A stretch of DNA of 37,473 nucleotides from a virus (Duplodnaviria; Caudoviricetes), in IMG/VR virus record IMGVR_UViG_3300020043_002771, positions 1 to 37,473 of that record. The stretch is one strand, 5' to 3'. The notes below the pieces were generated by a model that was given only the letters and a program-made list of their open reading frames with translations, ran no database searches and was not told the origin of the DNA. A program made the position numbers and the translations under genes. Below are positions 122 through 36,291 of the stretch, in pieces. Position 1 is the stretch's first letter, and each line of letters begins with the position of its first letter.

Positions 122-272
122 GGATTGTAAACGTCTGAGAATAATCCGTGAATAGGGTTGAAATTTCTCGAAAATTGGCGATGCTCGAAGTGACCGAAAT
201 TTTTTCGTCGTTGAATAACTCAATCCTATGGCCAACGCCATCGACATAAATATAAAGTTGTACTGTCTGCAT
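108..272 (-). pseudogene. Truncated 5' fragment of the large tail protein (second copy of 29445-31772)
   Basis: Reads MQTVQLYIYVDGVGHRIELFNDEKISVTSSIANFREISTLFTDYSQTFTIPA, then hits the inversion junction and stops. Confidence 0.85.
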
Positions 273-661
273 TATACGATGTCGTTAATTATGTTATACG
301 AGTACTCGAAGTCAATTGTGTAGTTGATATTTTTGTCTTTTAATCTCGTTTTTAGAGCAGTTGATTTGCTCTTAACGTTTACAGGTTTCTCATCAAGGAG
401 CACCGTTTGGCTGAGCATTAAATCGGTAACAATTTCCGCGTAGCTCTCGTCAACCCAACCCGTGTTGAGAGTGACCGATTGCTTACCGCTAAAATTGAAT
501 GATTGAAACTGATTGCGAAGTGGGTTGTAATCAACCGCGTCGGGCAATAGTTGAAAAGTAGAATTTTCAGTTTGTAAGCTATTTGTCTGCGCTTTGAAAA
601 AAGTTAAAAATTGCCATCCTCCAAATCGGTTAATAAATGCGCATTGTACTGGCGTATATTT
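121..661. repeat. Direct repeat of 31621-32161 (offset exactly 31,500 bp)
   Basis: Ungapped line-by-line match with about 33 mismatches in 540 nt (about 94%, hand count), nearly all synonymous. Similarity ends abruptly after ...GGCGTATATTT. Confidence 0.95.
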
Positions 662-1381
662 TGCCTCGCAAATTGGCTTGAAAACGAGTGGCCCATCGGT
701 TGGGAAATTGCCAACTGCTACCCATCGAATTTTCGTAAGTGATCCAAGTGGGTAATCGTAGAACGGCCCAAAGAATGGAATCTTAAACATATAAATGTCG
801 GCAGGATTAGTCCCCGATTTTAGTATTCTTATTTCCTCGTTGCTGCCATCAATCTCATCATAAGACGCATAAACATCGTCAACACTATCGTAGTCAATTA
901 GCACGTTAAAATATCCGACCTCGCCATCGATTAAGCCTTCCTCATAGTAACCCGTGATTTTATCATTGATTAAAAAGGCGATGTCGGTTTCGTTGTCTTG
1001 ATTGAATCCGCCTAAGTAGTTCGTATAACCCTCAACCCCTACAAAACTCTGACGAGTTAAGCGGTCGTAGTCCTTTTCGCCTTCTAATCGATAGGACAAA
1101 TCCGCAGCGACATAAACCCAGTTGGAATAGTCCTCCTCAATTGTCGGAGTAGTTGGTAAAGTTGGGTTGATACACTCGATTTTTTCCGCTACAAATGGCG
1201 CAATGTTAAAAACGATATTTGTTTGCGTTGCTGATACGATTTTCTTTTGCAGCGTATAACTCGGATTGGTCGGCATTGTTTCACCTTTGTGCCAAATGTA
1301 TAGCTCGAGCTTCGCCTCCGCTTGCCCTGCCTCGTCAATTTGTAAAAAATAGGGCGATCTAACGTTTAATATTTTCATCAA
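272..1381 (-). CDS. Minor tail / distal-tail-like structural protein (module A)
   Basis: 369 aa, between the tail-completion gene and the large tail gene. The C-terminal ~130 aa are nearly identical to 31772-32845. Confidence 0.65.
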   Translation of the reverse strand: MMKILNVRSPYFLQIDEAGQAEAKLELYIWHKGETMPTNPSYTLQKKIVSATQTNIVFNIAPFVAEKIECINPTLPTTPTIEEDYSNWVYVAADLSYRLEGEKDYDRLTRQSFVGVEGYTNYLGGFNQDNETDIAFLINDKITGYYEEGLIDGEVGYFNVLIDYDSVDDVYASYDEIDGSNEEIRILKSGTNPADIYMFKIPFFGPFYDYPLGSLTKIRWVAVGNFPTDGPLVFKPICEAKYTPVQCAFINRFGGWQFLTFFKAQTNSLQTENSTFQLLPDAVDYNPLRNQFQSFNFSGKQSVTLNTGWVDESYAEIVTDLMLSQTVLLDEKPVNVKSKSTALKTRLKDKNINYTIDFEYSYNIINDIV

Positions 1382-1889
1382 TTACATATTTTAAAAACTG
1401 TTCTAAATCAAGGCCGTACTTTTCAGCGACCACCTCGTCAAATTGTTTGTATTCTAACTCAAAAGCCGAGCGGAAAAACCTCGTTTCGGGTGTTCCTGTC
1501 TTATTTATCGAGCGAGTTATTGCTCCGACTAACGCTTTGCGGCTTGTGAATTGTCCGCTTGCGCTTCGGGTGCCTTTGAGTCCCTTACGAACCACCCATT
1601 TATCAATCGCGCCTGTTGACGCGTTGGCCTTGTATGGCGATTGTGGAGCCTTATTGCTTGACTGACTCCCTTTTGTTCCGTAGTCCAATAGCTTCCAGTA
1701 CGACTCGGCAAAGAAATCAAACTCTAAAGAGTTCGGGTTTATCTTTGTTTTGAACGTGAGCGACCTCGATAGGTTTCCGCTTGCGTTGTGCGTGCCATAT
1801 TTACCACCACGTTTGAGGTTGTCCTGCGCTCGCTGAACAACTAACGCGCCAAATTCGTTGAGGGCCTGTTGAACTATTTTAGTTTCCAT
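1359..1889 (-). CDS. Tail completion / neck protein (HK97 gp10-like, module A)
   Basis: Basic 176 aa protein with SGNLSRS, DYGTKG and a terminal FF..AFE motif. Paralog of 32842-33372. Confidence 0.6.
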   Translation of the reverse strand: METKIVQQALNEFGALVVQRAQDNLKRGGKYGTHNASGNLSRSLTFKTKINPNSLEFDFFAESYWKLLDYGTKGSQSSNKAPQSPYKANASTGAIDKWVVRKGLKGTRSASGQFTSRKALVGAITRSINKTGTPETRFFRSAFELEYKQFDEVVAEKYGLDLEQFLKYVIDENIKR

Positions 1890-2343
1890 CGCAGCAAACT
1901 GAAAAATCGTCGTTTGGTACGCTCAATTCGATGTCACACTTCCAACCGTCTAACGCATTTGTGAACGCCATAAATATCGGCTGCAACGTTGGCTCGTTCA
2001 AAAGCTCAATGTCATCGTCGTTGCGTCTCAAATTCATTTTCGTGATCATGTAGTTGAGTATCGCGTGACAGGTGTTTAGGTTATCGAGTTCGTTGTCATT
2101 GCCCAAGAATTTGTCTTTGACTTGCACCTTTGACATATTGCGAATATCTACAACGGCCACCTCAAATGTGAAAGTCACAATGCCATTACTAACGACTGAC
2201 GATAGTACATTGATGTGAGCGAGTGGGAATATATTTTTTTTGACGTTGTCAATTATATCAGTTCCGTGAGTGATTGTATTTAAAAGCGGTGCGCTTTCGA
2301 GCGTTGCCTTTATGTAGTCGATTGCTTGATAAAATGATCTCAT
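1879..2343 (-). CDS. Putative tail terminator (module A)
   Basis: 154 aa, acidic and beta-rich, with FPLAHI. Positional and sequence paralog of 33366-33791 (YPISHI). Confidence 0.55.
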   Translation of the reverse strand: MRSFYQAIDYIKATLESAPLLNTITHGTDIIDNVKKNIFPLAHINVLSSVVSNGIVTFTFEVAVVDIRNMSKVQVKDKFLGNDNELDNLNTCHAILNYMITKMNLRRNDDDIELLNEPTLQPIFMAFTNALDGWKCDIELSVPNDDFSVCCDGN

Positions 2344-2607
2344 TATTTCATTTGCTTTTTAATTTGCTTAATTTCCTCTTGTGCCTCGTCGATTAGGTAA
2401 GATAGTAGCGTGAGTGACTCATGAAGTGGCTCCTTTCCCACGTCTCGAAGGTGGATATTAAGCTCTCGCGCAATTCTAATAAACGATTGATACCAACCCC
2501 ACCTTTCTCCAAAACCTCCTCCAAATTCAGTCCCTCCCTCGCTGCCTTGTCCTCCAAATGCAATAGGGTATTGCTCAATAATTCTTTGCTTAAAGTCCAA
2601 AAAAAAA
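2343..2607 (-). CDS. -1 frameshift extension of the chaperone (G/GT-like, module A)
   Basis: The -1 frame opens at the T9 run: LFFLDFKQRIIEQYP...WGWYQS. Its stop overlaps the next start at 2343. Confidence 0.75.
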
Positions 2608-3085
2608 GCATTGAACCTATAACGACATCCATTCGCACCTCGTTAAATAGTTCGGCCTTTTCATCGTCGCCATCATACTCCTCGATTTGGTAAAAAGGAT
2701 CTGCCCATTTAGTAATCGGACGATATAGCACCGACATCAAAAGCGGGATGTTCTCATCGTTTCCAAGTAGCGTGTCGATGGTTGCGTGTTCCCCGAGCGT
2801 CATCTTATCCATGTTCGGAATAAATCCGTAGTTGATGCCGTTCATTTTGAACGTGCGAACGAGCTTCGGCTTTTGATCCAATACTTTTGCAATAGTCTCA
2901 ATAATATCAGTAAAATCATTCACAGGAATTTTCATTACATCGGCCACGCTAAGATTGCAAAATATTGCCACCATTTGAATACAAACGAAGGTCTCATCGT
3001 CTTGGTTGTCTTTTAATACCTTTTGATATCTCGTGTATTGAGACAATTTTATTTCGGATAGGCTTGTGGGAATTACTACTCTCAT
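2393..3085 (-). CDS. Putative tail assembly chaperone, zero-frame product (module A)
   Basis: 230 aa with YGFIPN..MTLGE and a T9 slippery run at 2599-2607. Paralog of 33847-34527. Confidence 0.65.
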   Translation of the reverse strand: MRVVIPTSLSEIKLSQYTRYQKVLKDNQDDETFVCIQMVAIFCNLSVADVMKIPVNDFTDIIETIAKVLDQKPKLVRTFKMNGINYGFIPNMDKMTLGEHATIDTLLGNDENIPLLMSVLYRPITKWADPFYQIEEYDGDDEKAELFNEVRMDVVIGSMLFFWTLSKELLSNTLLHLEDKAAREGLNLEEVLEKGGVGINRLLELRESLISTFETWERSHFMSHSRYYLT

Positions 3086-3114
3086 ACTTATATAACTGAA
3101 AAATGTTGTTTTGT
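3086..3114 (-). promoter_or_regulatory. Putative phage late promoter ACAAA-N10-TCAGTTATA-N5-ATG
   Basis: Same motif and spacing as at 24690-24718 and 27362-27390. Confidence 0.75.
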
Positions 3115-3126
3115 TTATTTTTTGAA

Positions 3127-4392
3127 CTACGTTATGATAACTTTGCGAACTGGCTTTAATTCAAAATATATCCGCATCATTAAAGCGTCGGAATAATCGG
3201 GAGATCGTCCTATTTTCTTTTTTATTTCGTCTTTGTTTATTAAAGCTATTTTTGTGGCATCAGTTTCTCTTGCTAATCTTACCATTTCAAGCTCCTCAGT
3301 CAATTGCTCAGTTTGCTTTTCATTGCAATTTATGTATATTTCATTTCGGTTTACGGTCTCGGCTAATTTATAATAGCATTGAGTTTTAATATTTTGGAAA
3401 TTTTCCTCTTTGTTATTGTATTTTATAGGTTTAGCATTATTGGTAAATCCTAAGCATTTTAAATAATCCTTAACTCCTCCGCCTACTCCATCCTCATCCA
3501 CAATTATATTGTTTCGGTTTACGTTATATTTTTCGGCTAACTTATTTATAGCGTCGACGCTTTCGTCAACCCTTGAAACTTGCATTTCAAAAACTTCTAC
3601 AACCCTAAATCCATCCCAACAAAATATTACTGTTTTGTCTCTACCTAATCGAGCGATATCCGCAGTAATATATTTTATACCGCTTTCAATATGTGTGTTT
3701 GAAAATAATTTTACTATGCTTTCATTGGTCATTAATTGGCCTTCGTCTTCAGATTGTTCGGCCTCATAAAGTTCCTTAAATATTTTTTCGGGTAAATCTC
3801 GTTTTGCTTGTAGTATTTCCTCCTCCTCAATAATACCCTCAGCAACTGCATCCCAACAAGTGACTTTAAAATATTCGTATTCTTTATCGGTTTTGGCTTT
3901 TTCCTTTAATCTATGCACCCAGTTTGAAATGCCACCAAAATTGCCTATTAACTTACAAGGAGCATTTGTTGAGGTTAATGTGGAACGCAAAGCAAACCAC
4001 GCTTCCTCTCTTGCTCTTGGTGCCTCGTCAAATACACAAGCGTAAACATCCTCCCCATACAAATTATCAGGCTTTTCTGCCGACTTAAAATGTATTTCCG
4101 CTCCATTTGGGCAATAGATAATTAAATTTGTCTCGTTAAATTTATACAATTTTGTAGCTGCCAAATATCGTCTAAGTCGATTAAATGCGATTTTAGATTG
4201 ATTAAATACAGGAGCAACCCACCAATAGTTATGGCCTTGTTGGTTTTCATTTTCATGCGCTTTACCAAATAGCCATATAATATGAGAAAACGTTTTACCT
4301 ACTTTGGTTGAAGCCTCAGTAATAGTAAAACGTGATTTTGAGTTTAATATTTTTTTTTGGTATGTAGTTAAATTTGGAGGTATTATGTCCAT
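3127..4392 (-). CDS. terL: Terminase large subunit (module A, Terminase_6-like)
   Basis: Atypical Walker A EASTKVGKT, Walker B VFDEA, and nuclease motifs ITADIARLGRD and SPDYSDALM. Confidence 0.9.
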   Translation of the reverse strand: MDIIPPNLTTYQKKILNSKSRFTITEASTKVGKTFSHIIWLFGKAHENENQQGHNYWWVAPVFNQSKIAFNRLRRYLAATKLYKFNETNLIIYCPNGAEIHFKSAEKPDNLYGEDVYACVFDEAPRAREEAWFALRSTLTSTNAPCKLIGNFGGISNWVHRLKEKAKTDKEYEYFKVTCWDAVAEGIIEEEEILQAKRDLPEKIFKELYEAEQSEDEGQLMTNESIVKLFSNTHIESGIKYITADIARLGRDKTVIFCWDGFRVVEVFEMQVSRVDESVDAINKLAEKYNVNRNNIIVDEDGVGGGVKDYLKCLGFTNNAKPIKYNNKEENFQNIKTQCYYKLAETVNRNEIYINCNEKQTEQLTEELEMVRLARETDATKIALINKDEIKKKIGRSPDYSDALMMRIYFELKPVRKVIIT

Positions 4393-4652
4393 TTACTCAT
4401 ATCAATTACAGGAATTGTGACTCCTTCAACATCGATAGTTTGATCAGGTTTGCCAACGGTATACTCTAAAAACAATTTAGCCGCTGGAACGTCTTGATCT
4501 CCGATTGCTTTTATTTTAAGCATTGTTAAAACTTGAATAATGTCTTCGGTATTAAATGCCTCATTAATTTCCTCTTTGAATTTGTTTTTTCTTTTGTCAT
4601 CAGGCCGAGTTGCTTTTGTGCTATGTCCGCCATTATTTTTTCTATTATCCAT
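4383..4652 (-). CDS. terS: Probable terminase small subunit (module A)
   Basis: Overlaps the terL start. MDNRKNNGG N-terminus and AKLFLEYTVGKPDQ motif. Paralog of 36022-36291. Confidence 0.7.
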   Translation of the reverse strand: MDNRKNNGGHSTKATRPDDKRKNKFKEEINEAFNTEDIIQVLTMLKIKAIGDQDVPAAKLFLEYTVGKPDQTIDVEGVTIPVIDMSKWT

Positions 4653-7455: not shown

Positions 7456-7560
7456 TAGTCAGGACAGGATTCGAACCTGTACAACTCGTTTGTCCTTTGG
7501 AACGAGTACTCCCAATGGTTGCGACCCATACGCTGCGTTTTCCTTTCCGCTCTCTGACTA
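7456..7560 (-). ncRNA. Oversized tRNA-like RNA
   Basis: Closing stem TAGTCAG/CTGACTA, D-like arm GCG-GAAAGGAAAA-CGC, perfect T arm ACAGG-TTCGAAT-CCTGT, and an expanded two-hairpin centre. Confidence 0.65.
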
Positions 7561-7663: not shown

Positions 7664-8317
7664 TCAAAATAATTTTTGCTGAGCGACGTGGTTATTAATA
7701 CGCTCCATCGCTTTGTCAAAATATTCCTTATCTAATTCGCAGGCCGTTAGGTCAAATCCATAATCGTGGCAAGCTATTGCTATACTTCCACTTCCTAAAT
7801 GCGTGTCGAGTATTTTATCGCCTTGCTTTGCATATTTGTCAAGTATCCATTTGTAAAGGGCAACAGGTTTTTGTGTTGGGTGTAATCTTATTTCCTTGTT
7901 TTTCATATCTTGTTGAAGCATTCCACTCCATCTTATTTTTACTTTACGAACTGAAGTATTAAAATTTGTCCAAGCTAATTCACAATCCGCCATACTAAAA
8001 TCTCCATTATCTTTATCCCAAACAATAAAACATGAAGTTGCACCTAAATAATCTAAAAAATAATTGCCGCCCCAAATAATTTGATTTTTTGAAATTCTTA
8101 AAAGTTCATTAAAATAATCTTTATTTGGAATTGAATTGTCCCAATTTTTTATACCATAATTTTTTCTAGGAGCAAAAGATTTTCCTCCATCACCAATTGT
8201 AGAAAACCCATTTTTACTAACCCCAATCCCATAAGGCGGATCTACTATTGCTAAATCAAAATAATTGTCAGGGTATCGAGCCATCAAGGCCATATTGTCT
8301 TCGTTAGTTATTGTCAT
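7664..8317 (-). CDS. N6-adenine/N4-cytosine DNA methyltransferase (beta class), copy 2
   Basis: DPPY, HPTQKP and LDTHLGSGS motifs. C-terminus QQKLF. Confidence 0.92.
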   Translation of the reverse strand: MTITNEDNMALMARYPDNYFDLAIVDPPYGIGVSKNGFSTIGDGGKSFAPRKNYGIKNWDNSIPNKDYFNELLRISKNQIIWGGNYFLDYLGATSCFIVWDKDNGDFSMADCELAWTNFNTSVRKVKIRWSGMLQQDMKNKEIRLHPTQKPVALYKWILDKYAKQGDKILDTHLGSGSIAIACHDYGFDLTACELDKEYFDKAMERINNHVAQQKLF

Positions 8318-9530
8318 TTTGTTTAAATATTTTTAGTGTATAATCTTTTTTTTGCTGCACTGTCTTATAAATATCGTATTCGATTCCGCCTTTTGAGAAA
8401 ACCCAAAAGACCTCGTTATTTAAACGCTCTTTTGTTGTTAGCCTCGCACGGCTTTGCCAGTAACTTGTCGCACTAAAATCGATATTATAGTAAACCAAAT
8501 ACTTTGCATTTTTTAAAGATATCCCTTCCCTGCCGGAAAGTATCTGAAGCGCGATGTTTTTATCGGTTGCGTCGAACTCCTCGACTGAATTTGTCAAGTA
8601 ATCGGCTCCAAATACTTGCAGCAGCGCATCCCATTCGGCCTTGAATTTATAAAAGATTGCGATTTTCTCGCCTTTAAACTTCTCCTTGATAAACTTAGCC
8701 TTTGAGTCATCAATTACTTTAGACGTGCCATCCTCAAATTTACAAGTCCCACTCGATAACTGGTGTATTTTCTGCATGAGCTTCACGCCTGTATCCCCTA
8801 AAATAACTTGCCCTTGTCCATTACGAACGATTAAATCCTTTTTAAGGCGTCGAATGACCTCGTAAGTGATTGGATGCATCTCGCACTCCAGCACCATCTC
8901 GTTGACGCTTGTCGTAAACCCTGCCTCTTTTTGTGTAAAAGTTATAATATACGGCCGTGTGGATCGTCTAACTTGATTCTCTTTTGCGTTTGAGTAGTCC
9001 TTGACAACGGCATAGCCTAAGCGTTTTTCTTTGATGTCGACGTACTCAGCCGCCCACTTATAAAAATTCGCATAGTTTTTGTAAGGCGAGTGATCACTTA
9101 CCCAAAACTGATGGTACCATTGCGAGTAACTCTCGGGCGTTGGCGTTCCACTTAGGAATATCATCGGAAGTTTACTGAAACGCTTTTTAAACTCTTTTGC
9201 CGTTGCGTTTGGCTTAGGAAAGGCACCAAAGCGATGATGTTCGTCATGTATGATTAAATCAAACTCGCCATTGACTAAATGTAAACTCTCATCGTTTATG
9301 ATTGTTAAATCAAAAGTAAACCCGAAGTTGTCGTAGTCCCATTGAATACTGGAGATGGCTTTCTTTTTTGTTAAAAATAATACTCGCTTGGCTGCAAATA
9401 ATTGCGCCGTATTTAAAGCGGTCAAACTCTTGCCAGTTCGCACTTCCATCGCCAAATAGACGATGTGTTTATTTCGCAAAATCTCAACCGCCTCAGCTGA
9501 TATTTTTGTTTGGTAGTCACGCAAAATCAT
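8304..9530 (-). CDS. SF2 (SNF2-like) helicase
   Basis: LRDYQ, Walker A MEVRTGKS, DEHH, LSGTP, SGREGISL and YWQSRAR motifs. Confidence 0.85.
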   Translation of the reverse strand: MILRDYQTKISAEAVEILRNKHIVYLAMEVRTGKSLTALNTAQLFAAKRVLFLTKKKAISSIQWDYDNFGFTFDLTIINDESLHLVNGEFDLIIHDEHHRFGAFPKPNATAKEFKKRFSKLPMIFLSGTPTPESYSQWYHQFWVSDHSPYKNYANFYKWAAEYVDIKEKRLGYAVVKDYSNAKENQVRRSTRPYIITFTQKEAGFTTSVNEMVLECEMHPITYEVIRRLKKDLIVRNGQGQVILGDTGVKLMQKIHQLSSGTCKFEDGTSKVIDDSKAKFIKEKFKGEKIAIFYKFKAEWDALLQVFGADYLTNSVEEFDATDKNIALQILSGREGISLKNAKYLVYYNIDFSATSYWQSRARLTTKERLNNEVFWVFSKGGIEYDIYKTVQQKKDYTLKIFKQNDNN

Positions 9531-10132
9531 CTTAAAATATTTTGATTTACGTGTTTAGTAACTGCCCGAAGTTTACAATTCAAATTGTGAAAGCTAATAA
9601 AATCGTTTAATATTTCATTGTTTATAAAAATACTCGTTTGCTCTTGTACCATTATATTTTTAACCAATTCCTTTGGATTGTATCTTTTTATCCATAGCTC
9701 AAACATTTCGCTAAATTTTAAATCGTAGTGATCAATATTGATATTCTCTTTGGTTAAAATCTCGTCAGATATTGCGCATTTTGTAACGCCAAAAATTACG
9801 TTTTTATTTCTAAAATCTATAATTTCGGGAAGGATTGCAGTTCTGCAAGCTATTTTAATTCGTTCTAAATCGCTTTTACTATTGCCAGCAATTGCAGTTA
9901 AATAGGATATATCGACAACTGTATTGTCAATTCGTTCTATAAAAAAACAACGGTGTTTGTAATTGTCCTGTCCTATAAAAATACGCTTGCCTCCTTGGCC
10001 TCGTTTCTCTTGCCAATTAGGATGATTTTTAAAAACATTTACAAGGAAATCACGCTCCTCAATTATTGTATGATTCAAAGCGTATTTATTTAAAATCAAT
10101 TTACACTGGTCTTTTTGATATTTTTTTGTCAT
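9527..10132 (-). CDS. DCL/DUF3223-like domain protein with a possible HNH-like C-terminus
   Basis: HP..QEKRG.G...RCFFIERID....DISY matches the DCL pattern. The C-terminus has C..S...IDH...FH...LR......N. Confidence 0.65.
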   Translation of the reverse strand: MTKKYQKDQCKLILNKYALNHTIIEERDFLVNVFKNHPNWQEKRGQGGKRIFIGQDNYKHRCFFIERIDNTVVDISYLTAIAGNSKSDLERIKIACRTAILPEIIDFRNKNVIFGVTKCAISDEILTKENINIDHYDLKFSEMFELWIKRYNPKELVKNIMVQEQTSIFINNEILNDFISFHNLNCKLRAVTKHVNQNILR

Positions 10133-10409: not shown

Positions 10410-12689
10410 CTAAATGGATTCATTTTTTAACTCTTTGATGTATTTATAAATCATTTGAAGTGATACACCTAATTGCTCAGAAACCTCTTTTTTGTTTAGA
10501 TCGGGATTTGCCTCAAATAAAATTTGGAATTTCTCCTTTGTCGATTTGTTTGAGTTTGATTTTATTACCGTTCTAATCTCGGCCACTTCAATCGAGTCGA
10601 TTTTTACCTTTTTAGCCATGGCAATAAAATACTTTGACAATTTCTCGGCCTTTAAAATTGAGTCCTTCGATATCTCCTCAAAGTTGTAGCTATCCAATCC
10701 AATAGCATTAAACGTATGGAGTAAAAGTGCAAAGCGTGGAATGTATGATTTTTGCTTTGGCAACATTGATTTCATATACTCATTTTCCTCGTTTGAGTTT
10801 TGGATGCTTGTAATCTCGTTAAAAATACGCTTCCATTCAATTTTTGCCTCTGCCCCAAATCGAACGATTTTAGGCTCGATATTTCCGTCCTCATCCCTTT
10901 TTATCATCCGATGCTTAACGGCCTCAAAAAACGCAATTATAGTATCGCTATACCATTGGATTGTATTGCTATCCATTTCCCTATCATTGTACTGCTCAAT
11001 AGCTAACTCGGGAAATGATAAAAGCATCCTGTCCATAAAACCATTGTCTTTGTTATCGTCAGTATAAAACGAGTTAAAAATAGTCGGTTGGATGCCTCCG
11101 AGTACTGGGATTAATGGCTTTGCAACAAATGATCCAGCGCGAGTCATTCGGTTGAGGTTTACGGATTTACCGCTCCAAGTTGAAAGCCAAAACTCGAGGT
11201 CGCTTCCTGCCTTATATTTATTCATATCCTTAAACCAACCCGCAAGCTCATCCTTAAAAACGCCAACCGATATATCGTTTTGTTGGTGTAAATCAACCAA
11301 AGCCTCAATTGTTATATCATTGGCAATAAATTGTTTTTTAGTTGGTTTCATAACCTCGGGATATTCCTCTTGCTCCTTCTTTGACAAGTTAGAATAAAAC
11401 TCATATTTCTCGTATTCCTTAATAAAATTCGCAATCTCTCGGTTGTTAATTTTCTCAATTGGGAATATGATGTTTGAGATTGAAGGAGTTTTTCCTATAC
11501 CTGCTTTTCCTACAATTGCAACCCAAATTGTCGCAAGCTCACGCCATCCTTTTTTAACCTCGATTTGCATAGCGTTGCCAATACTTAATGAAATCATCCA
11601 AAGAAGTGAGCAACCCATATAATCAATTGAACTATCCAACGTCTCGGAGCATTCAGAAATATATGATTGAATTGGCTTCGGGAATATATCAATCGGAAAT
11701 TCGAGATCGGATTTATTAATTACAATTTTTTCCTTCGGCTCAAGTGCTTTATTTACTATTCGTGATCCGTAACCTTCGGAATATAATTTAGACGCTGCGG
11801 ATTTCATATCATCATGATGATATTTTCTAGCGTAGGCAGTGAACGGAGTATAAAGAGTTTCGTGTTTATATTGGCTGCCTGTTGAAAATAAATACATAAA
11901 GCCAGTATCTTTAAAAACATAACCCGAATGTGGAGAAGTTGCTCCATGGCGTTTGATTACATATTTTTTTGATAGGTTGCCAACGATTGTAAATTCATCG
12001 CCTATGATTGAGAAAATATCGTTGCGCTGGTTAAAATCATCCCAAGTCGTTAAATCGGATTCAATATAAATTTTTTTATCTCGTTTGATTTCTATGGGTT
12101 TCTCATCAATGTAGTTATACATTTTTGAGAATGTCATTATAATCTCACGGTCATCGTCTGAAATGTAATCGATTTGATGGTAGTTCTTTTTAGATACTTT
12201 ATTCTCGGGATAAGTAAAAATATATCCGCCAACTCCGCGAGTTTCTAAAACGGCTTCCGAGTGGCCTTTAAGTCGAGCCAATTTAATATTTCCCTCTACT
12301 CGTTTCGATTTGTAAAGGATATGATATCCCGCATTTTTAGTTTTGTAAATTACAACCTTATCGTCAAAGTCGAGAATATTGTCACGAAGGTAACCAGTGT
12401 ACTCGTCCCAAAAATCCTTCTGCTCTTTTGCGGTTGAAAAAACTTTCAAATCAATATCGACACATTCGAGGTCATCAAAGCCTGTAACGATTCCAAAATT
12501 GGTAGTTGCAGGAATTTCAGTTTTATCCTTCCTAAAAATACCGCCTTTATAATTATAATGCCGCATGAATTTATCATATTCAAGCCGCTGAGTTTGTTGT
12601 GCCTTCCATGGGAAGTTTGGCACCTTGTCATCGCCAACTGTTATTAGCGAAAAGTTATCATAAAATAACTTGAGTTTGTTTTGATCCAT
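10410..12689 (-). CDS. Bifunctional prim-pol primase fused to a DUF3987-type P-loop domain and C-terminal HTH
   Basis: KVP..PWK, GIVTG...VDID and T...GYHILY (prim-pol); GKAGIGKT and FKDEL (P-loop); terminal KKEVSEQLGVSLQMIYKY (HTH). Confidence 0.88.
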   Translation of the reverse strand: MDQNKLKLFYDNFSLITVGDDKVPNFPWKAQQTQRLEYDKFMRHYNYKGGIFRKDKTEIPATTNFGIVTGFDDLECVDIDLKVFSTAKEQKDFWDEYTGYLRDNILDFDDKVVIYKTKNAGYHILYKSKRVEGNIKLARLKGHSEAVLETRGVGGYIFTYPENKVSKKNYHQIDYISDDDREIIMTFSKMYNYIDEKPIEIKRDKKIYIESDLTTWDDFNQRNDIFSIIGDEFTIVGNLSKKYVIKRHGATSPHSGYVFKDTGFMYLFSTGSQYKHETLYTPFTAYARKYHHDDMKSAASKLYSEGYGSRIVNKALEPKEKIVINKSDLEFPIDIFPKPIQSYISECSETLDSSIDYMGCSLLWMISLSIGNAMQIEVKKGWRELATIWVAIVGKAGIGKTPSISNIIFPIEKINNREIANFIKEYEKYEFYSNLSKKEQEEYPEVMKPTKKQFIANDITIEALVDLHQQNDISVGVFKDELAGWFKDMNKYKAGSDLEFWLSTWSGKSVNLNRMTRAGSFVAKPLIPVLGGIQPTIFNSFYTDDNKDNGFMDRMLLSFPELAIEQYNDREMDSNTIQWYSDTIIAFFEAVKHRMIKRDEDGNIEPKIVRFGAEAKIEWKRIFNEITSIQNSNEENEYMKSMLPKQKSYIPRFALLLHTFNAIGLDSYNFEEISKDSILKAEKLSKYFIAMAKKVKIDSIEVAEIRTVIKSNSNKSTKEKFQILFEANPDLNKKEVSEQLGVSLQMIYKYIKELKNESI

Positions 12690-12804
12690 AAGATTAAAAA
12701 TAAAATCCCTTCAATTTCATCGTGGCAGCGATTACTCTTGAAAGGATTTGTAAAATAATTCCGTAAAAGTAATATATCTGCCAATAAATTACCACACAAA
12801 TATA
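12690..12804 (-). promoter_or_regulatory. Host-type promoter (TATATTTG, 12797-12804) and kissing-loop leader RNA of the primase gene
   Basis: Two hairpins with complementary 6-nt loops TGGCAG and CTGCCA. The second has an AGTA/GAA internal loop and is followed by a T-tract. Confidence 0.7.
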
Positions 12805-12825
12805 GGTATTAATTTTAATAAAACA

Positions 12826-13081
12826 AGCTTTAAACCATTTTAAACTTTTTTAAACTTTTTTTAAACCAAATTAAAAAGTCATTCGTTTGATTTATAGTGT
12901 TTTAACATAAGATTTTAAACTTTTAAACCAAGTTTAAAGGTTTTTTAGTAAAAAAAATTTTTTTTTAAAATAAAAAATAAATCTATTATAAAAATATTTT
13001 AAACTTTAAAAGGTTTAAAGTATTGATTTATAAAGTTTTAAACTGCGAATTTAGTTTAAAATAGTTTAAAATGGTTTAAAG
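12826..13081. repeat. Putative replication origin: AT-rich region with TTTAAAC/GTTTAAA iterons
   Basis: Non-coding, between ssb and primase. Tandem TTTAAAC copies on the left, inverted GTTTAAA copies on the right, A/T tracts in the centre. Confidence 0.7.
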
Positions 13082-13084
13082 AAT

Positions 13085-13109
13085 AAAAAAGGCGATCCGT
13101 AGACCGCCT
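13085..13109 (-). terminator. Probable intrinsic terminator after ssb
   Basis: AGGCG/CGCCT stem followed by T6 on the minus strand. Confidence 0.55.
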
Positions 13110-29452: not shown

Positions 29453-31772
29453 ATTGGTAAACTGGTATATAAATAAAAGTTCCTACTCCGTTTTTAAAGC
29501 CTTCTAAAATTATTGCATCCGTGCGATCTACGCCACTTGAATTTATAGGGATAGTCACGTTTAAAATAACATCCTCCTCGTTGTCGGTGCTTGTTGTATA
29601 GCTCAAAAATCCTGCTGGTGTTTTCACGTCAAATGTGTCCCAATTGTTTTTGAGGCAAATCACTTGCACGGTTTGCGCTGAATGGTTTACGATTAATGAT
29701 TGCACGTTTGCGGGCTTGTCTAATTCAACCAAAGACGTTTGATTTCGGTAATCACTTATTAACTCGAAATTGACTTCGCCTGTTGTGAGGTCGGTTGTCA
29801 TGGTGTTAATTATATACCGCTTATTCGACAATACAATTCGATCGTTTAATCTTATCGATGTAAGTAAAAAAGGCCCGAGTTGAGATTTCGCTTTGATTAC
29901 TCGAGTGCGTTGGTTATATAAGTTCTCAATATACTGCTGATAGTATCGATTATAAAGTCCCTTTGGTGCAGGTTGCAAATACCAAGGTGAAAACTCAACG
30001 CCCCAATTTAAAGAGTACAAATAAGACAAATCGCTTCCCATTGCGTTATACTCATTTGAGAAACGGTTGTAATTTGTGATTGCCGTCGGTGTGATTAAAG
30101 CCTCAGTCCATACTTGTATTCTATCGCCACCCACCAAAGGATCGGGCAATAGGCCATTTAAGTACATAAGCACAGGCTTTGGCGTATATGGTTGCAAATT
30201 TATATTTATAAAACTGCACGTCTCAAAGTTGTAACCCGTTGTTCGCTCACACATTGGATTTTCAAAAGGCAATTTTACCTCGTATTTTTCAGTAAATGCC
30301 GAGTTTGGATTGTCGAAAAACAAATCGCCATACTCCAAATTGTTTAAATTTCGGTATTTTGTGTTTAAAATATTCTCCGATTTCTCGTATTTGAAGTCCA
30401 ATCGCTTGAATAATTTAGGCTTTGAAATGTCGATTGTGTCCGCTTGAGTGTATTCGGTAATATCTACAATTCGACCGCGTTGGTAATACTCCTCCAACGT
30501 CTGAAAAAAGAAAGTATTTTCGCCTGTTGGTATAATTACAAGGTTGAACATTTTAACAAATGCAGTCAAAAAGTCGTTTATTTTAAGCTCGGGCATAAAT
30601 TTAGCGACGTCCATTACTGGAGTAGTTGCCAATCCGCTACCTGTTGCAACGTATGTGGTTGGAATAAGTGGATTTCCTGTCCAAGTTTTATAAGTCAAAG
30701 TGGCGGAGAAGTTAAAAACGGCCGCGTCTGAGTCGACTATAAAATACCAGTTATAAGCTCCTTGATCATTTACATAACTCTCGTCGTAAAAATTGACTGT
30801 TGCGCCTCCGATTAAATTCGTGTAGGTATTAAAAAGCAATCCATTTCGGTAAACTCGTATATTAAAATTCACGCCGCCTGTTCCTGTAATTGTAAGCGAT
30901 GCGGTTTGACGTCTAAATTGAGAAGTTGAAAATCCCCAACTCGTATAAAGTGAGCTTCCAAATATTGGCATCCCCGTTGTTGAGCTTGTAAACGTTACAG
31001 GAATTGAACTATTAAAAGTTGTCAATTCAGTACCATTTTTACAATAGAAATGCAAATTTGTAAATTGCTCGTTATCCTCGTCAAAGATTGAACCCGAAAA
31101 TCCAACGCCATACGTTGATTGTATGCGGTCAAAAATTTCCGATATAGGGATAGCAGGAAATAATTCATTCCATTTTACTGCCGTGTCATCTCCGTAGTCA
31201 ATAGTTACATCTGTCGGAAATCCGTCGTTGTATGTGTAGTGTATTTTGCTCCCAAATAAAGGGTATTTCACAACGTAGCCGCTTGATTCAATTCGGTCAA
31301 TGACTTCCGCTGGCGTGTATTGGTGTTGTATACTTGAGTAATCTAAACTGCCGATTTTATCCTCTAAAAACAAATCCGAAAGTTGAGACAAATTACCCAC
31401 AAAGTTGATTGTGTAGCTTTCAATGTAGCCATTTTTTTTGTTAGCTTGTTGCATTACAAATTTACCATCTCGGAAAGGCACCGTATCAATCTCGATAAAG
31501 CCGTAGTATTTGACGCGGTGGTCAAAGGCGTTGTCAACGTTTAACTGATTGTCAACGTTTGTATCTCCAACGGCTGACTCATACCAATGGCGAAAAATAG
31601 CGTTGTTATGCTTGCTCGCTGGGATTGTGAACGTCTGAGAATAATCCGTAAATAGGGTTGAAATTTCTCTAAAATTGGCGATGCTCGAAGTGACCGAAAT
31701 TTTTTCGTCGTTGAATAACTCAATCCTATGGCCAACGCCATCGACATAAATATAAAGTTGTACTGTCTGCAT
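29445..31772 (-). CDS. Large tail tip / baseplate hub-like protein
   Basis: 775 aa, beta-rich, with YSQTFTIPAS..NN and DFL....KMFNL. Adjacent to the tape measure gene. Confidence 0.7.
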   Translation of the reverse strand: MQTVQLYIYVDGVGHRIELFNDEKISVTSSIANFREISTLFTDYSQTFTIPASKHNNAIFRHWYESAVGDTNVDNQLNVDNAFDHRVKYYGFIEIDTVPFRDGKFVMQQANKKNGYIESYTINFVGNLSQLSDLFLEDKIGSLDYSSIQHQYTPAEVIDRIESSGYVVKYPLFGSKIHYTYNDGFPTDVTIDYGDDTAVKWNELFPAIPISEIFDRIQSTYGVGFSGSIFDEDNEQFTNLHFYCKNGTELTTFNSSIPVTFTSSTTGMPIFGSSLYTSWGFSTSQFRRQTASLTITGTGGVNFNIRVYRNGLLFNTYTNLIGGATVNFYDESYVNDQGAYNWYFIVDSDAAVFNFSATLTYKTWTGNPLIPTTYVATGSGLATTPVMDVAKFMPELKINDFLTAFVKMFNLVIIPTGENTFFFQTLEEYYQRGRIVDITEYTQADTIDISKPKLFKRLDFKYEKSENILNTKYRNLNNLEYGDLFFDNPNSAFTEKYEVKLPFENPMCERTTGYNFETCSFININLQPYTPKPVLMYLNGLLPDPLVGGDRIQVWTEALITPTAITNYNRFSNEYNAMGSDLSYLYSLNWGVEFSPWYLQPAPKGLYNRYYQQYIENLYNQRTRVIKAKSQLGPFLLTSIRLNDRIVLSNKRYIINTMTTDLTTGEVNFELISDYRNQTSLVELDKPANVQSLIVNHSAQTVQVICLKNNWDTFDVKTPAGFLSYTTSTDNEEDVILNVTIPINSSGVDRTDAIILEGFKNGVGTFIYIPVYQYA

Positions 31773-32845
31773 TATACGACGTCGTTAATTATGTTATACG
31801 AGTACTCAAAGTCAATTGTGTAGTTGATATTCTTATCTTTTAATCTCGTCTTGAGAGCGGTCGATTTGCTCTTCACGTTTACGGGTTTATCATCAAGTAG
31901 CACCGTTTGGCTGAGCATCAAATCAGTAACAATTTCTGCGTAGCTCTCGTCAACCCAACCCGTGTTGAGAGTGACCGATTGCTTACCGCTAAAATTAAAC
32001 GATTGGAATTGATTGCGAAGTGGGTTGTAATCCACCGCATCGGGCAATAGTTGAAAGGTCGAGTTTTCAGTTTGCAAACTATTTGTCTGCGCTTTGAAAA
32101 ACGTTAAAAATTGCCACCCTCCAAATCGGTTGATAAATGCACATTGTACTGGCGTATATTTAAACTCTTCAATTGAATTAATATTAATGCTAAATAAAGT
32201 ATCTTCACCAAAAAATACTCTTATCTTATTAACTGTGTAAGGATTAACTAAGTTTGTATTTACGTAAGGAATTTTGAATAAAATTATTTCATTACCTCTG
32301 TTGTTTAATGTTTCGATATGTGTATTTATACCATTTGTATAATTTACATTTAAATTAGAAGTTGGGTCTGTTTCACTTTGAACTAATACATTAAAATAGC
32401 CATTATCATCGTTCTTTATTATATCTACACTTAGTAATTGATTTAAAAATTTAAAAGATGCACTTATTGGAGATTGATTTCCTTGCATATAATCCGTAAA
32501 TCCATTAAGTCCCACATAATTTTCAGTAGCTATTAATGTCAAATCCTTTGGGTCGGTTCCGCTAAAAGTTTCTACTTTGAACAAACACCAGCATTTAGGA
32601 TTTTCTTCTTCAATTACATTATTATTATCTGCTGAAATAGGGTCTATAAATTCTTGCAATTGGTTTGAAATATTATAAACGCATTCTCTATTTACCAAGC
32701 TGGGAACTGATTTACTAAATGTGTAACTTGGCATCGTTGGCTCAGCATCTCCTTTATTCCAAATGTATAACTTTACTTGCGTAAACAATTGCCCCGCTTC
32801 ATTCACAACTATTTTAAACGGACTTCTAACTTGTACTATATTCAT
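31772..32845 (-). CDS. Minor tail / distal-tail-like protein (module B)
   Basis: Paralog of 272-1381: near-identical C-terminus, divergent N-terminal two thirds. Confidence 0.65.
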   Translation of the reverse strand: MNIVQVRSPFKIVVNEAGQLFTQVKLYIWNKGDAEPTMPSYTFSKSVPSLVNRECVYNISNQLQEFIDPISADNNNVIEEENPKCWCLFKVETFSGTDPKDLTLIATENYVGLNGFTDYMQGNQSPISASFKFLNQLLSVDIIKNDDNGYFNVLVQSETDPTSNLNVNYTNGINTHIETLNNRGNEIILFKIPYVNTNLVNPYTVNKIRVFFGEDTLFSININSIEEFKYTPVQCAFINRFGGWQFLTFFKAQTNSLQTENSTFQLLPDAVDYNPLRNQFQSFNFSGKQSVTLNTGWVDESYAEIVTDLMLSQTVLLDDKPVNVKSKSTALKTRLKDKNINYTIDFEYSYNIINDVV

Positions 32846-33372
32846 TTTATATCTTTTAAATTATAATCTACCATCGTTTCAACATCAGCCCCAAAAGCCT
32901 TAACCAAATCTACATCTATATATTTCTTATAACCAGCCTCAAAAGGTTTTGTGAAAAATAAACTTGGTTTAATTCCTTTGTGAAAAATTGACCTCGTTAT
33001 TAAATAAGCAGTCGATTGATAGCTTAGAAATTTACCGCTTTTTTTATCCCTAAATTGAAATCCTTTAGCACGTACCCATTTGTCAATCCCTTGAGTTAAA
33101 CCTCCTTTTACACCCGTTCCAGAACCAAACTTAAAAGGACTATTCGGAGCTTTTAAACTTGAAGTTTTACCTTTCACACCTTGATCTTGAAACGCTCCAT
33201 AGTCATCCATTTTAAAACCTACAATTGTAAAGTTATTTTCAGTCACTATCTCGCCTTTTAAGCTATTGTAAAGGTCTTTACTTACGTTCTTACCGCCCTT
33301 TGTAAGATTGCTCCTTGACTGCTGTATTACATAGTCACGGAATTTCTTAATAACGCTATCAACTTCTAACAT
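32842..33372 (-). CDS. Tail completion / neck protein (module B)
   Basis: Paralog of 1359-1889, with DQGVKG, APNSPF and FFTKPFE. Confidence 0.6.
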   Translation of the reverse strand: MLEVDSVIKKFRDYVIQQSRSNLTKGGKNVSKDLYNSLKGEIVTENNFTIVGFKMDDYGAFQDQGVKGKTSSLKAPNSPFKFGSGTGVKGGLTQGIDKWVRAKGFQFRDKKSGKFLSYQSTAYLITRSIFHKGIKPSLFFTKPFEAGYKKYIDVDLVKAFGADVETMVDYNLKDIK

Positions 33373-33791
33373 ATAGTCATATCGTTTGGAACGGTTAAAT
33401 CAAAAGTAGCGGTACAACCTGCCACTTTGTCCTCAAATCTATCCCGAAAAAATTCATAAGAAGGTGCGCCTTCAATTACATAATTATCATCCGTAATTCT
33501 ACCACGTTTTAACAGTTCACAAAGCCTAACGCCCACCATAGATTGGGTATTCATTACGTACATTTCGTTACTATCATCATCATTGACTAAATCCATCGAT
33601 ATTACGCTTATATTGTAGTTAAAAGCGTTACCATTTTCACGAAAACTATTGATAATTATGTGTGAAATTGGGTATATATCACGCTTATTTGTCGCCACAT
33701 TAAAGATTGAGCCACTTGAAACGGTGTTACAAAACTCGTCTTGCTTTAATTGTTCCGTAATTGCATCTACTATTTGTAAAATTCCTTTCAT
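33366..33791 (-). CDS. Putative tail terminator (module B)
   Basis: Paralog of 1879-2343. Confidence 0.55.
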   Translation of the reverse strand: MKGILQIVDAITEQLKQDEFCNTVSSGSIFNVATNKRDIYPISHIIINSFRENGNAFNYNISVISMDLVNDDDSNEMYVMNTQSMVGVRLCELLKRGRITDDNYVIEGAPSYEFFRDRFEDKVAGCTATFDLTVPNDMTIC

Positions 33792-34043
33792 TTTTTTAGC
33801 ATTTTCATTTCTATTTCTGTTTTTTCCTTCTCAAAAGTTAAAAAAACTAAACTTTGATGAAGTGGAAGTTTGGTCGCATCGTCAATTCTAAAAGCGTTTC
33901 CTTTAGCGAGAGCATAGAGGCTGTTATACCATCCCCATTTTGCCCCAAATTGTGCTGTTGCAGAATATTCTGAACCTCCTGATTGTTCTCCAAATAGTTC
34001 AGGGTAGAGTTCAACAATGCGTTGGCTAAATTGTAAAAAAAAA
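33788..34043 (-). CDS. -1 frameshift extension of the chaperone (module B; not in the ORF track)
   Basis: From the T9 run: VFFLQFSQRIVELYPELF...FGAKWGWYNSLYALA...LPLHQSLVFLTFEKEK...MLKK*. The stop overlaps the next ATG. Confidence 0.8.
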
Positions 34044-34527
34044 CAATCGAACCGAGTACGGCATCGAGTGGTGCAAACTTCATAACTTCGCTATATGTGA
34101 TTGTACCTTGGTACGGTTGTATATCGTATTTATCTTTGCCTAATCGTTTTGTAATTGGGCGGTACATAACAGCCATCGCCTTATGCATATTGTCCCAATC
34201 AGATATATACTTTGTTAAATCAATATATTCTCCATTTGTGATTTCGTCAAGGTTAGGAATAAATCCAAATTCAACGCCACCCATTTTAAATGTTGGTACG
34301 TATTTATGTTCCTCCTGGAACATCTTACTAAGGCTTTCAGAAATTTCGTTTACATCTTTGTAGCGTATCTGTGCCACGTCTTTTAAATCGATGCCACAAA
34401 AGATTTGTATCATTTTTTGCTGCACAAATTCAGGGTCATCGTTTGAGTTGGCGACCGTTAAAAATGCCTGATATTTTGCGAGTGTAATCTCGTTTAATTT
34501 CGTTGGGATAGTTAGTTCTAATTTCAT
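33847..34527 (-). CDS. Putative tail assembly chaperone, zero-frame product (module B)
   Basis: Paralog of 2393-3085, with a T9 run at 34035-34043. Confidence 0.65.
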   Translation of the reverse strand: MKLELTIPTKLNEITLAKYQAFLTVANSNDDPEFVQQKMIQIFCGIDLKDVAQIRYKDVNEISESLSKMFQEEHKYVPTFKMGGVEFGFIPNLDEITNGEYIDLTKYISDWDNMHKAMAVMYRPITKRLGKDKYDIQPYQGTITYSEVMKFAPLDAVLGSIVFFYNLANALLNSTLNYLENNQEVQNILQQHNLGQNGDGITASMLSLKETLLELTMRPNFHFIKV

Positions 34528-34557
34528 AACTACAATACGAAAATTTAACGTTTTTGT
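34528..34557 (-). promoter_or_regulatory. Variant late promoter ACAAA-N12-TCGTATT-N6-ATG (module B)
   Basis: Same position as 3086-3114, with the same upstream box and a different downstream box. Confidence 0.5.
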
Positions 34558-34560
34558 TAT

Positions 34561-34594
34561 AAAAAAAAAGCCTTACATTTCTGCAAGGCTTTTT
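34561..34594 (-). terminator. Intrinsic terminator
   Basis: AAGCCTTGCAG-AAA-TGTAAGGCTT hairpin with a T9 tract. Confidence 0.8.
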
Positions 34595-34613
34595 CCACTA
34601 ATACAAATAAAAA

Positions 34614-34769
34614 CTAATTAACCAAAATACTAAAAAAATTATAACCAATAAACAACTCTTTAAATTCTTTCAAAGCATCAATTGAATTTCTAGCTTCAAT
34701 TGTTTTAACTTCAAAATCCTTTTCATTATCACCCCAACGATGCCAGCCTGTAATTTTATATTTTTTCAT
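34614..34769 (-). CDS. Moron-like small protein (51 aa)
   Basis: MKKYKITGWHRWGD..., preceded by a TATCTTTG promoter element (34782-34789) and followed by a terminator. Confidence 0.6.
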   Translation of the reverse strand: MKKYKITGWHRWGDNEKDFEVKTIEARNSIDALKEFKELFIGYNFFSILVN

Positions 34770-34832
34770 TTTATTTTTTATCAAAGATAATGTAAAACTA
34801 ATCAATATAAATTTTTTTTAACAAAACTTTAA

Positions 34833-36041
34833 CTAATAAATAAAATACTTTCCTTTGTTTGGATTATCTAAATTGTAGATCACATTGTAACGAATTGCAT
34901 CGATTATGTGATTCCAATTATCAACGTACAACTTTGATGCTTTGTTTAAATAACAATAGTTGTTAAATTCTTTTGCAATATTTGAGCTATTATTTTCTAC
35001 TATAATTTCATAGTCCTGCATTCTTATTATACCGCTTTCAATAGTTCCCTTTTTAACCGCTTGGATATTTACGCCCGTATGTTTTAAATCGTCAATCAAT
35101 CGAGGCTCTGCACTATCGGCAATTATTAATTTACCGTTTGTTTTAAGTTTTAACAGTTCCGCTAATACGTGCGTTTTAAGACCACGTTCATAAATATGTT
35201 CCTTAACGTATATAATCTTTTTATCTTTATCAATAGCAACCTCAGCGAGGGCGTCAGGGTCAATACTAAATCCAAAGTCCATACCGAAAGATGACTGTAA
35301 CCCATTAGGATTAAACTCTCCGAACTTCCAATTCGTAAATACAACCCCCTCAGCTTTGTTTAACCAACCCCCAAGTATAACGTGTTCGTATTTCTTTGGA
35401 TTGTTCTCTTTAATCTTTAAAATTTCAGCAAGGAAACTTTCGTCTAAATTCTCTTCATTATCTAAGTAGGTCGTGTGTATGTAGGTAGTGTTACCTTTGA
35501 TTCCATTAAAGCCCTCAGCAACGCCCTCACTTTCAAAGAAACGTTTATAAATCCAATGCGTTTTAACAGTTGGATTTAAAATTAATATGATTCTATTTTG
35601 TACGCCCTTTTGTCTTATTGAAAGGTTTATTTTATCGAATATAGCTTCGTCAATCAATTCTTCCGCTTCGTCCAAAATCCAAGTGGTTACACCCTGCAAT
35701 GATTTTAAGTTCGCTGTTTGGTCACCGCTTGAGGTTTTAATCCCTTTGAATATTATATCAGTCCCTGATTTTTTATTATGAATTTCGCTTTTGTTAATAT
35801 CAAAAATATCGTTTGCCTCAAGTAAATCTATTTTCTCTTGAAACTCAGGTATAATTGATAAATGTGCTGAGGTCATCGTTTGTCTTGTAAACAAAATCTT
35901 ATGACCGCTTTGAAACGACAAAGTTGAAGCCATTGCCCCAACTTCAAAAGATTTACCACTACCACGTCCACCCGTAACAATAAAGTACCGGGTGGCATTT
36001 TCATAAAGTGGTATGTATTTTTTATTTAAAGTTAATGACAT
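34833..36041 (-). CDS. terL: Terminase large subunit (module B, PBSX/XtmB family)
   Basis: GGRGSGKS, LDEAEE, LNP, GMDFGFSIDP, DSAEPR and NHIIDAIRY motifs. Confidence 0.93.
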   Translation of the reverse strand: MSLTLNKKYIPLYENATRYFIVTGGRGSGKSFEVGAMASTLSFQSGHKILFTRQTMTSAHLSIIPEFQEKIDLLEANDIFDINKSEIHNKKSGTDIIFKGIKTSSGDQTANLKSLQGVTTWILDEAEELIDEAIFDKINLSIRQKGVQNRIILILNPTVKTHWIYKRFFESEGVAEGFNGIKGNTTYIHTTYLDNEENLDESFLAEILKIKENNPKKYEHVILGGWLNKAEGVVFTNWKFGEFNPNGLQSSFGMDFGFSIDPDALAEVAIDKDKKIIYVKEHIYERGLKTHVLAELLKLKTNGKLIIADSAEPRLIDDLKHTGVNIQAVKKGTIESGIIRMQDYEIIVENNSSNIAKEFNNYCYLNKASKLYVDNWNHIIDAIRYNVIYNLDNPNKGKYFIY

Positions 36042-36291
36042 CTTTTAAATCGAAATCGTTAACTGTTAAATTAGTCGTTTGGTCAATCACTTGTTTAGGC
36101 ATACCATAACGATACTGTAACCACGTTTTAATTGCATTAACGTCCTTTTGTTCTATTTTTAAAGCGAGTGCGCTCCAAACTTCCTCAGGCACTAAAATAG
36201 CATCCATAGTATCAATTAAAGAAATCAATTCATCTTTCTTTAAACGCCCTGAATTTGCTCTTGCACCCCCGTTATTTTTTCTTTTATCCAT
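36022..36291 (-). CDS. terS: Probable terminase small subunit (module B)
   Basis: MDKRKNNGGAR.NSGR and WLQYRYGMPKQ motifs. Overlaps terL. Confidence 0.7.
   Translation of the reverse strand: MDKRKNNGGARANSGRLKKDELISLIDTMDAILVPEEVWSALALKIEQKDVNAIKTWLQYRYGMPKQVIDQTTNLTVNDFDLKDVINFK

Follow-up and report, generated by a model that had tools for sequence, protein, structure and literature searches.

A two-hairpin kissing-loop leader RNA upstream of replication and nuclease genes in Bacteroidota phages, a possible ligand-free attenuator

Introduction

Little is known of how Bacteroidota phages control their genes. The locus considered here, a leader of ~95 bases on the minus strand of a viral genome, 5′ of a primase-helicase gene, raises the question of what kind of RNA would head a phage replication operon and how it would act on the genes behind it; in most of the relatives examined, the same element heads replication and nuclease genes. 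The window, meaning the whole stretch of DNA analysed, is an entire virus record of 37,473 bases. The original prediction, made from these letters, had described a promoter, two hairpins with complementary 6-nt loops, an AGUA/GAA motif, a U-tract and an ATG, and all of these lie on the minus strand where it had placed them. It had read them as a tertiary-structured element acting in cis, either an attenuator or a protein- or ligand-sensing switch.

Anatomy of the leader and its operon

The elements of the leader, in their order of transcription, are as follows.

12824..12826, minus strand: predicted -33 TTG, 19 nt 5′ of the -7 box (sequence)
12797..12804, minus strand: predicted Bacteroidota sigma-A -7 box, TATATTTG (sequence and the published TAnnTTTG box)
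12769..12792, minus strand: hairpin 1 (P1), whose first base is the predicted +1 (sequence, fold, covariation)
12778..12783, minus strand: kissing word X, UGGCAG (TGGCAG in DNA) (sequence, covariation)
12750..12768, minus strand: A/U-rich single-stranded linker of 19 nt (~90% A/U)
12703..12749, minus strand: hairpin 2 (P2), with a terminator-like lower stem, loop E, a 4-bp upper stem and a 6-nt tip (fold, covariation)
12715..12737, minus strand: loop E/sarcin-ricin internal loop, GAGUA (12737-12733) opposite GAAA (12718-12715) (sequence)
12723..12728, minus strand: kissing word X′, CUGCCA, the exact complement of X (sequence)
12696..12705, minus strand: U-rich tract belonging to the predicted intrinsic terminator (sequence)

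The predicted promoter follows the TTG-N19 rule, and a spacer of 19 is also the most frequent among the relatives described below (16/69). Its box corresponds to TAnnTTTG, given in PMC9723704 as the Flavobacterium sigma-A box at positions -12 to -5, so that +1 would fall on 12792, where hairpin 1 opens. This hairpin contains a U.U mismatch and is weak by itself (-3.0 kcal/mol), its predicted fold closing a 4-nt loop unless the kiss forms. Hairpin 2 has a folding energy of -16.3 kcal/mol and is followed, 13 nt 3′ of its stem, by the ATG at 12689; it is absent from the list of a simple terminator scan of the window because its loop exceeds 8 nt. The promoter motif alone is common in the window (58 sites, with 52 expected) and the folding energy of the whole leader is not beyond chance (z = -1.19; 25 of 200 shuffles were equally stable), so the case for the leader rests on comparison. 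A generic leader detector applied to the 37-kb window finds this leader alone.

The surrounding features are these.

10410..12689, minus strand: primase-polymerase (Prim-Pol)/DUF3987 helicase gene with a C-terminal HTH, the first gene behind the leader (Pfam, PHROGs)
8304..10132, minus strand: next genes of the likely operon, encoding a DUF3223 protein and an SF2 helicase (Pfam, PHROGs; putatively co-transcribed)
12810..13085, no strand: AT-rich TTTAAA-repeat block, a candidate replication origin
13082..13109, minus strand: terminator of usual type for the gene upstream; it would shield the leader promoter (terminator scan)

Methyltransferase genes follow those for the DUF3223 protein and the SF2 helicase, and the AT-rich block carries a 29-nt inverted repeat (97%; 12828-12856 / 13053-13081). 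This arrangement supports the proposed position in cis, at the head of a replication operon and beside an origin-like block. Elsewhere in the window, a weak Rfam tRNA match (7456-7559, minus strand; 29.7 bits), not found by ARAGORN, overlaps an endonuclease-like ORF.

Conservation and covariation of the kissing pair

Comparison with related leaders provides the principal evidence for an RNA structure. A pattern that fixed only TATATTTG, GAGTA, 14 free bases, GAAA and TTTT, run against 62 of the 64 parts of a viral-contig collection, returned 119 loci with 81 distinct cores. Every core with a lower stem of at least 8 pairs (69/69) holds the exact complement of its own 6-nt tip within its first 40 nt, compared with 2/12 of the cores lacking such a stem; as a control, the tips of other codes fitted 2 times in 1242. 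These 69 cores use 19 different kissing codes, the first letter of X′ being C in 18 of them. A metagenome pattern, which fixed four of the six tip letters and whose set overlaps the viral-contig set, likewise gave the own-tip complement in 20 of 20 distinct cores, with 0/40 cross fits.

The remaining anatomy was counted among the same 69 relatives. The G-C-bounded stem measures 8-9 bp in 65/69, the U-tract has at least 6 U of 8 in 67/69, an ATG stands 7-25 nt behind in 62/69, and the linker up to the G-C-bounded stem spans 16-22 nt in 62/67. Of the 67 relatives with a P1, 60 have its first base on predicted +1 or +2. An ORF of at least 45 aa lies within 90 nt in 66/69, and every member with enough flank directly precedes a gene. 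An antisense promoter word occurs in 8/66 leaders, a count without a control.

Two alignments were made: a long-P1 set holding the window and 12 of 17 representatives (L201, L219, L249 and L272 left out, L241 moved), and a short-P1 set holding 20 of 25 representatives and L241 (L190, L242, L270, L271 and L279 left out). Paired cells amount to 97.8% and 97.7% respectively, versus 30-52% in slid controls, and all four helices (kiss, P1, upper P2 and lower P2) covary in both, with two-sided changes at 4/6 and 5/7 pairs of the kiss. Pairing of the lower stem is partly built in since that stem was the selection filter; the kiss, P1 and upper stem were not used as filters. G.U pairs make up 78 of 621 lower-stem cells, which favours a sense-strand RNA; A.C would have failed the lower-stem filter, and only 2 of 71 complement-positive cores failed it. 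The kissing loop proposed for the window is thus borne out by the loop-loop covariation that had been suggested as its test, and the RNA structure of the leader is, judged by this comparison, almost certainly real.

Relation to known RNAs

The suggested search of Rfam matched no family over any leader, whether in the window at the gathering score, the leader at E<=10, 20 homologue loci at E<=1 or the region of phage P2559S at E<=10; for guanidine-IV and Gd4v this exclusion is qualified, as Rfam 15 may or may not contain a Gd4v model. We found no description of this leader family in the literature searched, whose coverage mostly excludes subscription journals. On this comparative evidence the leader is a real, conserved and uncatalogued phage RNA.

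Nevertheless, several described RNAs resemble it in part. The original prediction had pointed to lysine riboswitches, with which the leader shares a loop E, a loop-loop contact and, putatively, control of attenuation (PMC3082890). That link did not hold. The lysine riboswitch has a five-way junction, a kink-turn, a P2-L4 contact and a separate terminator (PMC3082890), none of which is present here, and loop E here lies within the terminator arm. The lysine riboswitch was rejected as an assignment, the leader fold being two hairpins and a linker.

The closest architectural match is to guanidine-IV (GGAM-1/mepA) and Gd4v, which likewise have two hairpins, a loop-loop pseudoknot and a 3′ hairpin serving as intrinsic terminator (here by sequence anatomy), with a linker that shortens as the terminator closes. 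As described for guanidine-IV, the two-hairpin layout gives antitermination (PMC11611296; PMC7736828), the kissing loop being proposed to hinder terminator closure as the linker shortens (PMC11611296; PMC7736828; PMC9788692). The differences are considerable: guanidine-IV and Gd4v have highly conserved ligand-binding loop nucleotides, whereas the kiss here is plain Watson-Crick with 19 codes (53 in the wider set); they lead transporter-type genes, whereas phage replication and nuclease genes follow here; and, unlike theirs, P2 here holds loop E. A small-molecule riboswitch of lysine- or guanidine-like type could draw on the shared layout and on the near-constant C at the start of X′, but without an Rfam match, invariant loop nucleotides or a junction, and with replication and nuclease genes downstream, it is very improbable. 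The ligand-sensing part of the original prediction fares no better, in that the kissing letters vary and 0 of 44 scanned downstream ORFs encodes a transporter or amino-acid enzyme.

Leader-encoded complementarity coupled to premature termination is also the principle of phage P1 c4. The same holds for phage P4 CI RNA with seqA-seqC and for Gifsy-1 IsrK, where it lies 5′ of phage replication genes (PMC4825925). The P4 system, however, employs a processed RNA pairing two sites in trans (PMC4825925), whereas here there is one tip pair in cis and a leader of ~95 nt, and no second target was found. An immunity RNA of the P4 CI/c4 type was rejected, neither a second target near the window's gene starts nor downstream enrichment being found. 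On these comparisons the leader appears to fail membership of the guanidine-IV, lysine and P4 CI families alike.

Unnamed candidate RNAs reported in the same gene contexts by Fremin et al. 2023 (PMC10690425) can be set beside the leader by description only. DNAVirus_4940 (85 nt, freshwater, before PriCT_1/VirE_N/DUF3987) and DNAVirus_1203 (96 nt, before NUMOD4/HNH) share both gene context and size, and DNAVirus 773, 3557, 8377 and 8401 share gene context; 4940 and 1203 are classed there as non-terminators (PMC10690425). The main text of that paper contains neither the word 'kissing' nor such a family. Compared by gene context and size, some of these candidates may overlap the leader family.

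Distribution and downstream genes

The breadth of the family was assessed in a sample not selected for the leader, namely the best 80 of 364 primase homologues, of which 73 had upstream DNA and 7, starting inside the gene, were dropped. The generic detector found a leader within 900 nt upstream in 46/73 of these (near-duplicates included), 31 of them directly upstream, with 3/73 inside the gene and 3/73 on the opposite strand as controls; no leader was detected within 900 nt in the other 27/73. Across 46 related phage records, some partial, there were 61 leaders at 3181 promoter words versus 6 at 3141 reversed words, at least one being present in 42/46 records and two or more in 15.

Leaders also precede initiators, helicases and homing endonucleases. 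Among 44 scanned of 50 distinct downstream ORFs, 15 encode HNH or GIY-YIG nucleases, 6 initiators, loaders or replisome organisers, 3 SF2 helicases and 2 primase-helicases, with 7 belonging to other or unknown families and 11 lacking a match; none encodes a SugE/MATE-type transporter. Hence the element does stand in front of primase homologues, as originally described, but it is not primase-specific.

Primase homologues occur in Bacteroidota MAGs. Of 5 MAGs with a primase homologue, 2 contain model R1, which was not found in the genomes searched among 151 of one Bacteroidota family (24 candidates scored in each). No close cultured relative was found for the window's primase or its own leader; a loop-E member is carried by the cultured Croceibacter phage P2559S (NC_018276), 5′ of gp48/gp49. 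Three sequencing runs of the same study gave low-complexity matches only and are uninformative on expression.

Some further variants were observed. In P2559S (L411, 12022-12125) the annotated start of gp48, 12076, falls within the terminator arm and so overlaps the leader; the ATG 3′ of the U-tract is the more likely start. In a subfamily of six loci (L032, L033, L034, L048, L051 and L066), P2 is uninterrupted, the first loop has the form GUCG-AA-7-nt, and the linker holds a further hairpin of AACGUU type. Others, L073-L079, carry a different leader 5′ of the primase (TACATTTG, a short GGACGG hairpin and a TATACGT...ACGTATA stem), in which no kiss was detected.

Loop E and its possible role

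AGUA/GAA is a sarcin-ricin/loop-E sequence (PMC1865062), as the original prediction had said, and here AGUA lies opposite GAA between two helices that covary. A query naming only the promoter and one code class recovered loop E in 18 of 23 architecture-positive cores (98 cores in all, from half of the collection, several contigs being shared with the viral-contig pattern search). In many primase leaders its place is taken by a different internal loop, 2x2 or 3x3, or by uninterrupted helix. By sequence comparison, loop E is real but confined to one branch of the leader family, and is not the core of the system. The P2 arm has a median length of 16.5 with loop E and 16.0 without, in a detector that demands 12 pairs.

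Loop-E-type motifs are often protein contacts. It is conceivable that termination is decided by a protein, from phage or host, bound to loop E or to the kissed fold, a reading to which the retention of loop E in 18/23 unselected matches of one code class and an HTH gene travelling with one allele would lend themselves. Against this, many members have no loop E, the downstream proteins are mutually unrelated and an HTH partner gene is absent from the corresponding place in the window; we regard a protein-gated switch as quite unlikely.

A model for ligand-free attenuation

How, then, would the leader act? On balance we lean towards a kissing-loop attenuator that needs no ligand and operates as the guanidine-IV platform does. 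The attenuator-type layout originally suggested is supported by the terminator-like anatomy, no invariant pocket is visible in the leaders, and the ON direction of the switch is drawn from analogy. By that analogy the tip contact likely hinders the stop hairpin and would set the amount of DNA-replication gene transcription, only part of the transcripts likely passing into the replication genes.

Host sigma-A polymerase would start at 12792, and hairpin 1 would fold first, displaying X. X′ would emerge from the polymerase ~17 nt before the U-tract and pair with X. The hairpins would then stack into a stiff rod of ~30 steps, which the ~19-nt linker must span; spanning would strain or delay closure of the terminator lower stem, giving polymerase read-through, as proposed for guanidine-IV. 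Were the lower stem to close first, an RNA of ~95 nt would be released. Loop E would serve as a stiff spacer within the rod, for which other internal loops or plain helix could substitute. Folding kinetics (depending on polymerase speed, pausing, Mg2+ and temperature), rather than a metabolite pocket, would decide between the two outcomes.

Computed folds are compatible with this order of events. When transcripts are cut 10 nt past X′, the minimum-energy fold contains X:X′ in 60/69; that of the longer transcript contains the terminator stem in 59/69. A rough worm-like-chain estimate with assumed constants puts linker strain at ~2.4-5.0 kcal/mol, which by this estimate would be enough to bias a kinetic race and not to exclude coexistence. 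Two points count against the model here: the estimated strain falls short of terminator stability, so that free RNA could hold the kiss and the full stem at once, and fixed read-through could also come from a weak terminator of plain design, without any kissing architecture.

That the linker can span kiss and full stem together, at an extension of ~0.7 of contour, suits a rather different proposal in which the kiss promotes termination, or compacts and protects a short transcript, so that the product would be a long-lived small RNA or the OFF valve would be tightened. The start of P1 at the predicted first nucleotide would also fit, as would the 15/44 downstream genes encoding nucleases, whose expression would need limiting. 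However, members with enough flank all sit directly before a gene, and the only tested RNA of the same layout, guanidine-IV, is an ON switch, making this proposal unlikely.

Linker lengths bear on the attenuator model. Five code groups with an extra linker hairpin have 29-39 nt in total yet keep 14-18 unpaired, which suits a rule of distance better than one of time. Taking all subfamilies together, longer stacks do not come with longer linkers (rho -0.28, p 0.055); within 18 loop-E codes rho is only 0.44-0.47 (p 0.05-0.07). Scaling of linker with stack is thus not supported, which counts against a simple ruler. A conserved strand invasion from P1 into loop E, suggested by the window's partial folds, was not significant among 54 leaders (p 0.08). 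With its varied arms and linkers, the family would supply dozens of natural examples, free of ligand, of the kissing-loop antitermination proposed for guanidine-IV, on which the blocking of a terminator by a kiss can be put to direct test.

Kissing codes and module exchange

It is tempting to consider that the codes also act in trans. A released ~95-nt RNA could, via its X′, pair with X of nascent leaders, block the cis kiss and raise termination, giving copy-number control or same-code exclusion by the logic of P4 CI or plasmid attenuators. Indeed, the P4 leader RNA terminates transcription of its own replication genes (PMC4825925), and our leaders are diverse in code, 53 being found among 107 leaders, with 0 of 24 within-genome leader pairs sharing one. 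This last figure is not significant against 35/537 between genomes (~1.6 expected). Moreover, entropy over 42 hairpins is lower for the kissing word (1.01) than for the stems (1.36 and 1.47), and the code is common to 63-72% of leader pairs with 8-9/9 identical stem letters, so there is no sign of diversifying selection on codes. No second target site was found, a downstream fit occurring in 1/65 versus 30/1170, and intramolecular pairing should outcompete pairing in trans. We consider such feedback rather doubtful. The same reservation attaches to the fuller proposal that these are a widespread and uncatalogued class of phage attenuators in which a fixed-length RNA strut mechanically holds the terminator open without ligand, the released RNA jams matching leaders in trans, and the 6-8-letter codes are exchangeable, origin-linked copy-number or exclusion groups, which we hold to be rather improbable. 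Many non-cross-pairing codes would in any case be useful regulatory parts for Bacteroidota.

The near-identical records L002 and L008 fit a role in trans, as they carry a different leader, origin block and tandem-HTH gene. Against the window, their flanking genes are 90-94% identical, the leader 64-66% and the AT-rich block 77-78%; they have an inserted tandem-HTH gene, and their module shares 88-93% identity with its counterpart in L006, a more distant record. Since both were exchanged together in L002/L008, origin block and leader appear to move as a unit. The tandem-HTH gene (83 aa; L002 ~2750-3001, also in L006 and L008) lies between leader and primase and travels with the other leader code and origin allele.

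Joint movement with the AT-rich block, and the ATG 13 nt 3′ of the stem, might suggest instead translational control, or a DNA or primer structure of the adjoining origin. The conserved U-tract, the G.U pairs and loop E (which favour a one-strand RNA) and the members that lead nuclease and small unknown genes all argue otherwise, leaving this explanation highly improbable.

At the two ends of the window (272-4652 and 31772-36291) lie divergent copies of one module, including a pair of terminase genes with hardly any alignable sequence, two copies of phrog_32199 (36% identity), and phrog_35281, 29822, 30964 and 38011, each present twice. The contig may be chimeric or over-extended; in the leader region, collinearity with relatives holds over 6.3 kb.
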